Position numbers and translations under genes: made by a program. Below the pieces are notes generated by a model. It was not told the DNA's origin. It saw nothing but the letters and a program-made list of their open reading frames with translations, and made no database searches. A DNA stretch of 64,000 nt from Parcubacteria group bacterium (GTDB lineage: Bacteria > Patescibacteriota > Minisyncoccia > UBA6257 > JACRHW01), in the NCBI GenBank assembly GCA_016217555.1, contig JACRHW010000023.1, forward strand, positions 466-64,465, given 5' to 3'. Shown here in pieces: positions 46,347-46,828 of the stretch. Each line of letters begins with the position of its first letter. The first letter of the stretch is position 1.

Positions 46347-46447
46347 AAATTTAGGTGTTAGCTTTTAGGTGTTAGCTTTTAGGGATAGCCGAAACGAAAC
46401 TAACTCTCTACGCCCCCAATAAACTAATACACTAAAACCCAACAAAC

Positions 46448-46741
46448 TTATTCTGCTAATACTGCGAGGATTTCACTCTCTCGCACGACAAGATATTCTT
46501 TTTGATCGACCTTAACTTCATTAGGAGCATATTTGGTAAAAAGGATCATATCGCCCTTCTTTACGCTCATGGGAATAAGTTCACCCTTCTCACTCACCTT
46601 ACCAGGACCTACGGCTACCACCTTCCCACGCATAGGTTTTTCCTTATCGGCCGTGTCGGGTAAGACAATACCGCTTTTTGTCTTTGCCTCCTCCTTTGCG
46701 GATTCTACAAAGACATGATCAGACAATGGCTGGATCTTCAT
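46448..46741 (-). CDS. groS: Co-chaperonin GroES (Hsp10)
   Basis: MKIQPLSDHVFVE...GIVLPDTA...KGDMILF canonical GroES. Confidence 0.95.
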   Translation of the reverse strand: MKIQPLSDHVFVESAKEEAKTKSGIVLPDTADKEKPMRGKVVAVGPGKVSEKGELIPMSVKKGDMILFTKYAPNEVKVDQKEYLVVRESEILAVLAE

Positions 46742-46828
46742 ATTTTAGCTTTTAGCTTTTAGCTTTTAGCTTTTAGGAACCCCTAACGAACTAACACACT
46801 AAAACCTAATAGTCTTTTAAATTTGTAA

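Follow-up and report, generated by a model that had tools for sequence, protein, structure and literature searches.

Tandem heptamers beside start codons have been described in several bacterial lineages. TAACTGA repeats are heptamer direct repeats that adjoin Shine–Dalgarno (SD)-less starts in Beggiatoaceae, Cyanobacteria and Bacteroidetes (MacGregor 2015, PMC4679880), and within the Haemophilus influenzae hmw1A 5′ untranslated region (UTR) an (ATCTTTC)n repeat makes up one side of a hairpin cleaved by RNase III, with a rise in expression (PMC12721329). Heptamer repeats near start codons are on record for Nostoc (bioRxiv 10.1101/2022.06.06.494920), and no long simple repeat is more common in prokaryotes than the heptamer, according to Mrazek 2007 as summarized in PMC4679880. 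Here we examine a 64 kb stretch of contig JACRHW010000023.1 (GCA_016217555.1) from a Parcubacteria group bacterium, which we call the window (GC content 42%), where tandem (A)AGCTAA repeats run up to the ATGs of four heat-shock genes: groES, groEL, grpE and hrcA. These AGCTAA repeats are real, and they are one case of a widespread start-proximal heptad-repeat leader and probably not a heat-shock thermometer. No description of the hairpin form of this leader, with its complementary array, was found in the literature searched.

The sequences that the original prediction gave immediately 5′ of the four ATGs read as stated. Each leader carries three to five head-to-tail (A)AGCTAA units of 7-8 nucleotides (nt) that approach the ATG to 5 nt or less, and farther upstream a G/U-rich complementary array (the anti-array), which the predicted fold pairs with the sense array. 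The genes and their leader elements are as follows.

46448-46741, minus strand: groES.
46742-46777, minus strand: groES sense array, CC-(TAAAAGC)x4.9-TAAAAT, 0 nt from the ATG at 46741, its last AGCT at -9.
46780-46809, minus strand: groES anti-array, TTAGGTTTTAGTGTGTTAGTTCGTTAGGGG, pairing with the sense array.
44676-46346, minus strand: groEL.
46347-46384, minus strand: groEL sense array, CCCTAAAAGCTAACACCTAAAAGCTAACACCTAAATTT, up to the ATG at 46346.
46413-46447, minus strand: groEL anti-array, GTTTGTTGGGTTTTAGTGTATTAGTTTATTGGGGG, 1 nt past the groES stop; 34-pair predicted stem with 6 G-U pairs.
54076-54546, minus strand: grpE.
54547-54572, minus strand: grpE sense array, GAGCTAACAAGCTAACAAGCTAAAAT, up to the ATG at 54546.
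54590-54605, minus strand: grpE anti-array, CAGTTTGTTAGCTTCC, 2 nt past the hrcA stop; two pairing registers possible.
54607-55314, minus strand: hrcA (short).
55315-55351, minus strand: degenerate hrcA sense array, CCTAATAGCTAGAAGCTAAAACCTATAAGCTCAACAT, up to the ATG at 55314.
55354-55372, minus strand: anti-arm of hrcA, GGTAGGTTTTATTCTTG, located where the transcript's 5′ end is predicted.

Tandem Repeats Finder resolves the groES array as a 7-mer in 4.9 perfect copies (46743-46776), that of groEL as a 14-mer in 2.4 perfect copies (46350-46383) and that of grpE as an 8-mer in 2.8 perfect copies (54550-54571), with a degenerate array at hrcA (55321-55350). The original prediction would have fallen had the repeat been no commoner than chance, and here the tandem and the single unit part ways: AGCTAA-N1-2-AGCTAA occurs six times in the window against 0.01 expected, a count that none of 100 shuffles matched, but the lone hexamer is not enriched (26 observed, 32.6 expected). 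A looser pattern, (CTAA-N3)x3 with at most one mismatch, occurs 15 times against 0.41 expected and extends to two further leaders, that of a LOG-family gene (54-71) and that of rpoD (41752-41769). The last AGCT begins at -9/-10 in all four heat-shock leaders, and the A-rich sense array is free of start codons and has stops in all three frames. The features by which heptamer direct repeats have been recognized are thus present, namely 7-nt head-to-tail units that are confined to intergenic sequence, point forward, lie close to the start and go without a canonical ribosome-binding site; the unit itself is AGCTAAN or CTAANNN and not TAACTGA. The window arrays are the same kind of element as the TAACTGA repeats, from a different family.

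As had been noted, no GGAGG-type SD sequence precedes groES, groEL, grpE or hrcA, nor does any other purine-rich complement of CCUCC lie 4-12 nt upstream of these starts. The further claim that the repeats replace SD sequences in heat-shock leaders holds in that the SD position is occupied by them, but the replacement is not particular to heat-shock genes, because the genome hardly uses SD sequences at all. In the -40 to -1 regions of 51 window genes, SD-like tetramers are not enriched (GGAG 6 versus 8.4 expected; GAGG 6 versus 7.7), and the most enriched 4-mer is CTAA (28 versus 4.2). Three window genes do carry a full AGGAGG at SD distance, from which it follows that the organism probably has a canonical anti-SD, if one seldom called upon. 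The anti-SD motif CCUCCU is absent in about half of Parcubacteria (PMC9297842). No 16S rRNA 3′ end lies in the window or in the related loci retrieved, and a literature search on SD or UTR use in Patescibacteria and the Candidate Phyla Radiation turned up only a ribosome-feature paper.

The complementary motif that was first noticed upstream of groES and groEL proves to be a genuine anti-repeat, since the folds pair it with the sense array, and the best anti-segment is one that had gone unmentioned, at grpE, where UUUGUUAGCUU pairs with AAGCUAACAAG. The predicted hairpins comprise 26 base pairs at groES (minimum free energy, MFE, -20.7 kcal/mol), 34 at groEL (-30.5), 17 at grpE (-18.1) and 18 at hrcA (-11.9), and stems across the window leaders span 17-40 pairs. 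Measured against dinucleotide shuffles, the leaders of groES (taken with its CIRCE operator, the controlling inverted repeat of chaperone expression), groEL and grpE fold more strongly than controls (z -2.3, -2.5 and -3.3), but that of hrcA does not (-0.5). A hairpin that sequesters the start was partly right as a suggestion: a stem-loop is predicted in three of the four leaders, but the AUG is unpaired in leader-only folds, where the stem ends 5-12 nt before it and leaves the last unit free as well. The mRNA-sense strand folds better than its complement in five of seven window leaders and worse in none, because of G-U pairs (25 sense versus 12 antisense). When leaders of every source are pooled (55 in all), the sense strand is the more stable in 33 and the less stable in 17 (Wilcoxon p=0.017), with the asymmetry in G-U counts alone being marginal (p=0.057). 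This strand asymmetry modestly favors an RNA-level structure over a DNA palindrome. The cassettes are probably transcribed, because they lie downstream of CIRCE-controlled promoter-like sites or inside operons, and by prediction the repeat stands, as in hmw1A, in a 5′ UTR as the arm of a long hairpin with promoter-like sites upstream.

The same build recurs at three further window genes, rpe (ribulose-phosphate epimerase), rpiB and gap (glyceraldehyde-3-phosphate dehydrogenase), whose leaders hold, in order, an anti-array, a loop, a sense array and the ATG, made of units unrelated to AGCTAA.

29444-29529, minus strand: rpe leader, of like build but with a 14-nt unit of its own, ATACTAGATACAAA.
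29974-30074, minus strand: cassette in the rpiB leader, composed of TACGAAT / GTATTAGTA units and almost the same as that of gap as far as the ATG.
31089-31195, minus strand: gap leader cassette, paralogue of the rpiB cassette, with a 40-pair stem.

Identity between the rpiB and gap cassettes stops exactly at the ATG. The two are palindromic, about 100 nt long, and have 16-nt terminal inverted repeats (ATACCAATATACGAAT / ATTCGTATATTAGTAT) and a TATAAT-like hexamer.

Two lone arrays also lie in the window. The original prediction had reported a copy upstream of a small membrane-protein gene and an inverted copy near the start of a 1,344-aa gene; both exist, but the first lies at about 108 nt and not 70 nt (43643-43670, with the start at 43775), and the second, said to be downstream, is 5′ of the start of the 1344-aa open reading frame (59867, minus strand).

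43643-43670, plus strand: lone sense-type array, CTAACACCTAGAAGCTAAAAGCTAACCC, without an anti-array, upstream of a small membrane-protein gene with its own SD.
59878-59937, minus strand: lone anti-type array, TAGCTTTTAGCCCATAGCTGTTAGCTTTTAGG..., in the leader (59868-59940) of the 1344-aa cell-surface-like gene.

The array at 59.9 kb complements all four heat-shock sense arrays better than their own cis arms do, with computed duplex energies of -39.4 versus -20.5 kcal/mol for groES, -32.2 versus -29.0 for groEL, -22.4 versus -17.4 for grpE and -27.1 versus -13.9 for hrcA (z from -3.6 to -8.6 against shuffles). On these modeled energies, pairing in trans between the 59.9 kb leader RNA and the heat-shock leader RNAs is conceivable. 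A separate observation concerns two paralogous small membrane proteins, each some 61 aa long (plus strand, at 43775-43960 and at about 44300-44487): their genes have strong G-rich SDs (GAAGGGGGGTG; GTGGGGTGGA), in contrast with almost all other genes of the window.

Heptad leaders extend well beyond this contig. When groES-groEL spacers of at least 40 nt were compared, an MFE z below -2 was found in 60% of those from Patescibacteria and 11% of those from other phyla, a tandem-repeat z above 3 in 33% versus 0%, and an SD-like tetramer in 7% versus 78%. A period of 7 dominates the Patescibacteria spacers, with many units (AACCTAA, TTACTAA, CGTTACG, TACGAAT and others). A metagenome scan for three copies of AGCTAA-N returned at least 120 loci with a GC content of 34-70%. 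Among the matches listed, none of 132 arrays falls within an open reading frame, and of 100 cases 33 have an inverted TAGC-N3-TAGC array no farther than 160 nt upstream, as against 2 with one downstream. The arrays adjoin recognizable N-termini of AtpA (three times), AtpG, AtpD, EF-G, GyrA (twice) and SecY, as well as S19, SucD, IlvD, LpxD and others; among the at least 120 loci listed, none stands beside a chaperone gene. The high-GC group is Acidobacteriota, Sulfotelmatobacter-like, and one low-GC case is a Buchananbacteria-like member of the Patescibacteria. The complete genome of Abditibacteriota IAD-21 (AP024152.1) has a TTAGCT/AGCTAA hairpin between groES and groEL, and in Acidobacteriota atp operons most of the spacers inspected (atpH-atpA, atpA-atpG, atpG-atpD) share the architecture with different heptamers. 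The architecture is thus found at non-stress genes both in the window and in at least three phyla. As a sequence string, AGCTAAN arrays had no match in the literature.

In two Acidobacteriota genomes, different atp spacers also have in common a hairpin, GTAGA(G/A)ACGTAGCTTGCTACGTCT, that resembles repetitive extragenic palindromes (REPs; locus L203, 3034-3115; locus L206, 4158-4247), which suggests that dispersed and possibly mobile hairpin families sit beside the heptad arrays.

Spacing and conservation bear on function. The last AGCY starts at -10/-9 in 14 of 46 metagenome cases and between -8 and -10 in 17 of the 46, and never at -6/-7. Among three Acidobacteriota lineages, the 40 nt before the atpA ATG, which hold the sense array, are 88-95% identical, as against 58-63% at fourfold-degenerate sites of atpA and 60-68% in the remaining spacer. 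Within single genomes, copies of the cassette match almost fully between a defined 5′ edge and the ATG itself, where similarity ends; besides gap and rpiB in the window, such ATG-bounded copies occur at groES and groEL in locus L003 (about 126 nt, 4 mismatches) and in locus L081.

The last of these loci belongs to the closest relative. Compared with species representatives in the genome collection, the window GroEL reaches at most 70% identity, the nearest being Patescibacteria. A protein search gave closer matches, P0001 at 97% (L081, from sample Hain_H51) and P0002 at 83% (L082, from a syntenic Patescibacteria metagenome-assembled genome), followed by proteins named from Wolfebacteria, Jorgensenbacteria and Paceibacterota; an exact-sequence look-up of GroES gave no record. 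The window groES and groEL leaders are clear paralogues, and within a genome the two leaders are 75% (window) and 87% (L081) identical. Between the window and L081, by comparison, leader identity is 64% and 54%, where shuffled sequences give a baseline of 54% and fourfold sites stand at 50%, whereas promoter and CIRCE are almost unchanged. Likeness within genomes together with divergence between them indicates that the cassettes evolve in concert, while CIRCE is under ordinary purifying selection. Over the 64 kb of the window, related copies number 2-6, with pairs 75-97% identical.

The reading that we tentatively prefer, built on sequence comparison and predicted folds, is a portable SD-independent initiation leader whose anti-array hairpin may tune its exposure or may be a processing or stability site. 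Of the interpretations offered at the outset, the alternative one, an initiation element independent of SD, fits best. The cassette would span 60-100 nt and comprise, in order, the G/U-rich complementary array, a loop and three to five A-rich units of 7-8 nt that reach the ATG, so that the AGCTAA repeats would be its start-proximal arm, with the last AGCT or ACCT beginning at -9/-10. The A-rich array could act as a landing and positioning site for the 30S subunit, of which the hairpin would set the share that is exposed. The same hairpin might be an RNase III-type processing site and a determinant of 5′ stability, and such processing would uncouple the neighboring cistrons groES|groEL and hrcA|grpE. 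The dnaK operon of Bacillus subtilis undergoes processing at its hrcA-grpE junction, as does the groESL mRNA of Agrobacterium at the groES-groEL junction; in the window, cassettes sit at both. Within the 64 kb, no motif of RNase III (rnc), cold-shock proteins (Csp), S1 or RNase J was found on searching. Slippage and copying from leader to leader would let expression drift and be re-set, and would make cassette evolution rapid and concerted. The cassette would then be a general expression module, with heat-shock control left to HrcA and CIRCE.

Several observations weigh against this proposal. Opening the -15 to +5 region is predicted to cost 5-11 kcal/mol at 37 °C, with most of the proposed landing site buried in the hairpin, and in E. 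coli terms such burial would be strongly inhibitory unless the stem were cleaved or unwound. The sense array is longer than the anti-array in 16 of 21 cases, a count biased by the method of finding loci; lone arrays beside starts are in the sense orientation in only 15 cases versus 6; and the metagenome subset shows little strand asymmetry (12 versus 9). In L082, the syntenic relative, hrcA and grpE both go without a cassette, which is therefore dispensable there; its grpE adjoins the hrcA stop, and before groEL only a single AAAGCTAAAAT is left. Control heptamers in viral contigs form arrays as well (AGTCAAN at 58 loci and ACGTAAN at 14, beside at least 80 for AGCTAAN), and because heptamers of the same composition do so, mutational slippage alone explains part of the pattern. 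Two phage contigs have the element in many spacers, sometimes followed by an ordinary SD.

On the viral side, contigs IMGVR_UViG_3300021255_003533 (loci L217, L248, L270 and L274) and IMGVR_UViG_3300028833_000521 (L243, L265, L278 and L283) have a GC content of 57-58% and more than 20 AGCTAAN arrays each. Several viral arrays take the fixed form [TTAGCT]n-AAGTNACTTG-GCGCGCC..GCGCGC-[AGCTAA]n, of which the middle is a GC-rich apical hairpin.

The alternative that survives best, though we think it rather unlikely, is that the arrays are functionless: a selfish or neutral intergenic repeat, similar to REPs, REPINs (paired REPs) or miniature inverted-repeat transposable elements (MITEs), that arises by slippage and local duplication or gene conversion and is tolerated in SD-less leaders. 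Heptamers are the commonest long prokaryotic simple sequence repeat (Mrazek 2007, as summarized in PMC4679880), arrays of other heptamers are likewise common, perfect copies imply recent slippage, and units cluster by region, AGCTAA at 43.6-59.9 kb and TACGAAT at 29.9-31.2 kb. Neutral origin would also suit the varying presence of the element among relatives, its frequency in most spacers of some phage contigs, and leaders that diverge between the window and L081 where CIRCE and promoter do not. It does not account for a start-proximal array that in Acidobacteriota is conserved far above synonymous sites, for the phase-locking of the last unit at -9/-10, for copies that terminate exactly at the ATG, for the 33:2 preference for an anti-array upstream of the sense array, or for the asymmetry between RNA strands.

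The preferred initiation leader can also be drawn more ambitiously, in a form that we regard as improbable when taken whole: a hitherto unrecognized module for SD-independent initiation that spans phyla (Patescibacteria, Acidobacteriota and Abditibacteriota), its last unit phase-locked at -9/-10 and read by a conserved ribosome component or factor, with an anti-array attenuator acting in cis, or in trans from the 59.9 kb leader, that would be tunable by slippage and copied from gene to gene up to the ATG. Alternatively the arrays could be bound by a protein that recognizes single-stranded RNA over some 7 nt (a cold-shock-domain protein, bS1 or another factor, for example) and that recruits or excludes ribosomes in competition with the anti-array. 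A strict 7-nt period across phyla, a fixed distance to the ATG, and one unit common to four leaders (with groES and groEL leaders at 75-87% identity over a 54% baseline) would all suit such a protein, and S1, Csp and CsrA have been proposed for the TAACTGA repeats (PMC4679880). We nevertheless consider it doubtful: units at other genes of the same genome are unrelated, related genomes use many more, and a single protein cannot read them all. The window search for Csp, S1 and RNase III motifs, as said, was negative.

The RNA thermometer with which the original prediction began would have the anti-repeat mask the initiation region when cool and melt on heat shock, on top of HrcA/CIRCE control. 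Its attraction is that all four hairpin-type AGCTAA cassettes of the window stand at heat-shock genes (Fisher p=0.0008 with genes taken as independent, but they form only two operons), and that the stems are rich in A-U and G-U pairs, with a UUUU:AAAA core as in fourU elements. Opening energies do drop as temperature rises, but smoothly, and identically for the rpe, rpiB and gap leaders. The proposed check by folding, carried out at 25, 37 and 45 °C, went against the idea: structures are unchanged, base pairs of the main stems keep a probability of about 0.9 at 45 °C, and even at 45-50 °C the stems are still folded by prediction, so that no melting is seen in silico over the 25-45 °C range, where the groES MFE moves from -33 to -19 kcal/mol. 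SD and AUG are not sequestered either, in that the SD is absent, the AUG is unpaired and the stem lies only upstream of about -5. Rfam scans of the window leaders and 16 related loci, at gathering and at permissive E-value thresholds, gave chance-level matches only; a LasI ROSE-like hit, which fell within the coding sequence of hrcA, scored 15.8 bits where the threshold is 76 bits. Heat-shock specificity is rejected by rpe, rpiB and gap in the window and by atp, fusA, gyrA, secY and rpsS elsewhere, where the listed metagenome loci, as noted, include no chaperone neighbors, and the relative L082 does without the element at hrcA and grpE. Hain_H51 may be a cold groundwater sample (going by its name, the record being silent), in which case stems would be still more stable in situ. 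On these folding models a thermometer in the window leaders is unlikely, and we leave it only a slim chance.

Control by heat shock has a ready substrate in both operons, each of which has a promoter-like site matching 11 of 12 consensus positions and a CIRCE inverted repeat. The pattern TTAGCACTC-N9-GAGTGCTAA at promoters, together with an hrcA gene, identifies an HrcA/CIRCE regulon, which forms the context of the repeats and is distinct from them.

46829-46855, minus strand: CIRCE operator of groES, TTAGCACTC-N9-GAGTGCCAA, apart from the repeats.
46888-46859, minus strand: groES promoter-like site, TTGACA-18-TACAAT, with CIRCE directly downstream.
55386-55412, minus strand: CIRCE of the hrcA operon, its spacer holding the -35 TTGACA.
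55403-55376, minus strand: promoter-like site of the hrcA operon.
52168-54057, minus strand: dnaK.
51168-52196, minus strand: dnaJ.

CIRCE is kept in L081 and L082, and the groES copy is identical in L081. HrcA itself is only 235 aa long (its L082 orthologue is similar, at 242 aa); Pfam detects its C-terminal domain weakly (E=1.3e-7), and the N-terminal winged-helix domain is not clearly found.

That the arrays are DNA operator half-sites, further sites for HrcA or for a second regulator, is suggested by the identity of GCTAA and TTAGC with the terminal pentamers of CIRCE and by arrays in both orientations; it is highly improbable, given that two of the four sites are intercistronic, that periods of 7, 8 and 14 bp do not hold one face of the helix, that G-U pairs and strand asymmetry indicate RNA, that arrays also occur in atp and ribosomal operons of other phyla, and that they are unconserved where CIRCE is conserved. 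Least credible of all is an alternative SD in which AGCUAA pairs with an altered 16S rRNA 3′ tail or another exposed segment, for which the SD-like distance of the last unit and the absence of CCUCCU in about half of Parcubacteria (PMC9297842) may be cited, against unrelated units among the leaders of one genome, three window genes with a full AGGAGG at SD distance, and a unit common to phyla expected to have ordinary 16S tails.

Three other candidates were rejected. A terminator or attenuator fails for want of a U-tract after the stems, a leaderless promoter (with TAAAAT for its -10 box) because it adjoins the ATG and leaves no room for a start site, and an integron attC because its core/inverse-core order is opposite to the observed 33:2 and the genes are housekeeping ones.

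Elsewhere in the window, the long spacer upstream of the groES promoter contains a perfect palindrome of 18+18 nt with a loop of 0 (47260-47295, ACCTCCTTTTACTCACGA/TCGTGAGTAAAAGGAGGT), one arm of which resembles the 16S anti-SD tail and the other a perfect SD. Two more loop-less perfect palindromes, at 16843-16870 and 20065-20094, have a common core (CCACGCAA/TTGCGTGG) and lie just downstream of stops (genes ending at 16824 and 20048); they may be a recurring terminator or protein-binding site. The 446 nt at 28359-28804 (minus strand), nominally intergenic, include an apparent unlisted small open reading frame that starts ATGATGAAATGTGATACGTGG... and has a hydrophobic core and Cys-rich ends, and the period-16 repeat signal of this segment falls within it.

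The question of how starts are found without SD sequences concerns much of the bacterial tree, including the Candidate Phyla Radiation. The heptad leader turns the vague notion of an A-rich leader into a defined sequence module, testable in culturable Acidobacteria or in vitro, and it connects the dominance of heptanucleotides among the simple repeats of prokaryotes with a possible function. When SD-poor genomes are annotated, the arrays can serve as marks of true start codons.

Set beside described systems, these leaders share with ROSE and fourU thermometers a U-rich strand that pairs with the initiation region of heat-shock mRNAs. Those thermometers mask SD or AUG by marginal helices that melt in the physiological range, whereas the window leaders have no SD, their stems of 17-40 pairs are predicted to be stable above 45 °C, they are not restricted to stress genes, and they have no Rfam match. 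Another comparison is with the short tandemly repeated repetitive (STRR) heptanucleotides of cyanobacteria, reportedly described by Mazel in 1990. With these, the Nostoc repeats and other long simple sequence repeats of prokaryotes, the window arrays have in common intergenic tandem heptamers, often near starts or promoters, in several unit families per genome; those repeats, however, have been described as dispersed elements and fingerprinting markers, and the descriptions consulted report neither an anti-array hairpin nor a fixed spacing to the ATG for them. REP, REPIN and MITE-like repeats and the intercistronic RNase III sites of phage T7 are extragenic hairpins tied to mRNA processing or stability, and they resemble the cassettes in being multi-copy hairpins between cistrons that are near-identical within a genome. 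REPs, however, have no tandem heptamers, are found chiefly 3′ of genes and are linked with RAYT transposases (the tyrosine transposases associated with REPs), whereas the window cassette copies end precisely at start codons.

The likeness to TAACTGA repeats (PMC4679880) is the most extensive, and takes in head-to-tail 7-nt units in two to six or more copies, an intergenic and forward placement a few nt from the start, the rarity of a canonical ribosome-binding site, diverse and often essential downstream genes, a patchy phylogeny and a proposed role in translation. Apart from the unit, the difference lies in the upstream inverted array and hence the hairpin, which is the rule in the window leaders and present in about one third of the metagenome cases listed, whereas only one inverted repeat is reported for TAACTGA. 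Phase-locking at -9/-10 and conservation above the synonymous level, as measured for heptad leaders, go beyond the TAACTGA description. The only experimentally dissected analogue that we found is hmw1A (PMC12721329), in which a transcribed 5′-UTR heptamer repeat is likewise an arm of a long hairpin. The hmw1A repeat supplies the 5′ arm, its partner being a G-rich segment without repeats close to a normal ribosome-binding site, the copy number is at least 11 and phase-variable, and the gene encodes a surface adhesin; in the window leaders, both arms of the predicted hairpin are repeat arrays, of three to five copies, placed before SD-less housekeeping genes.

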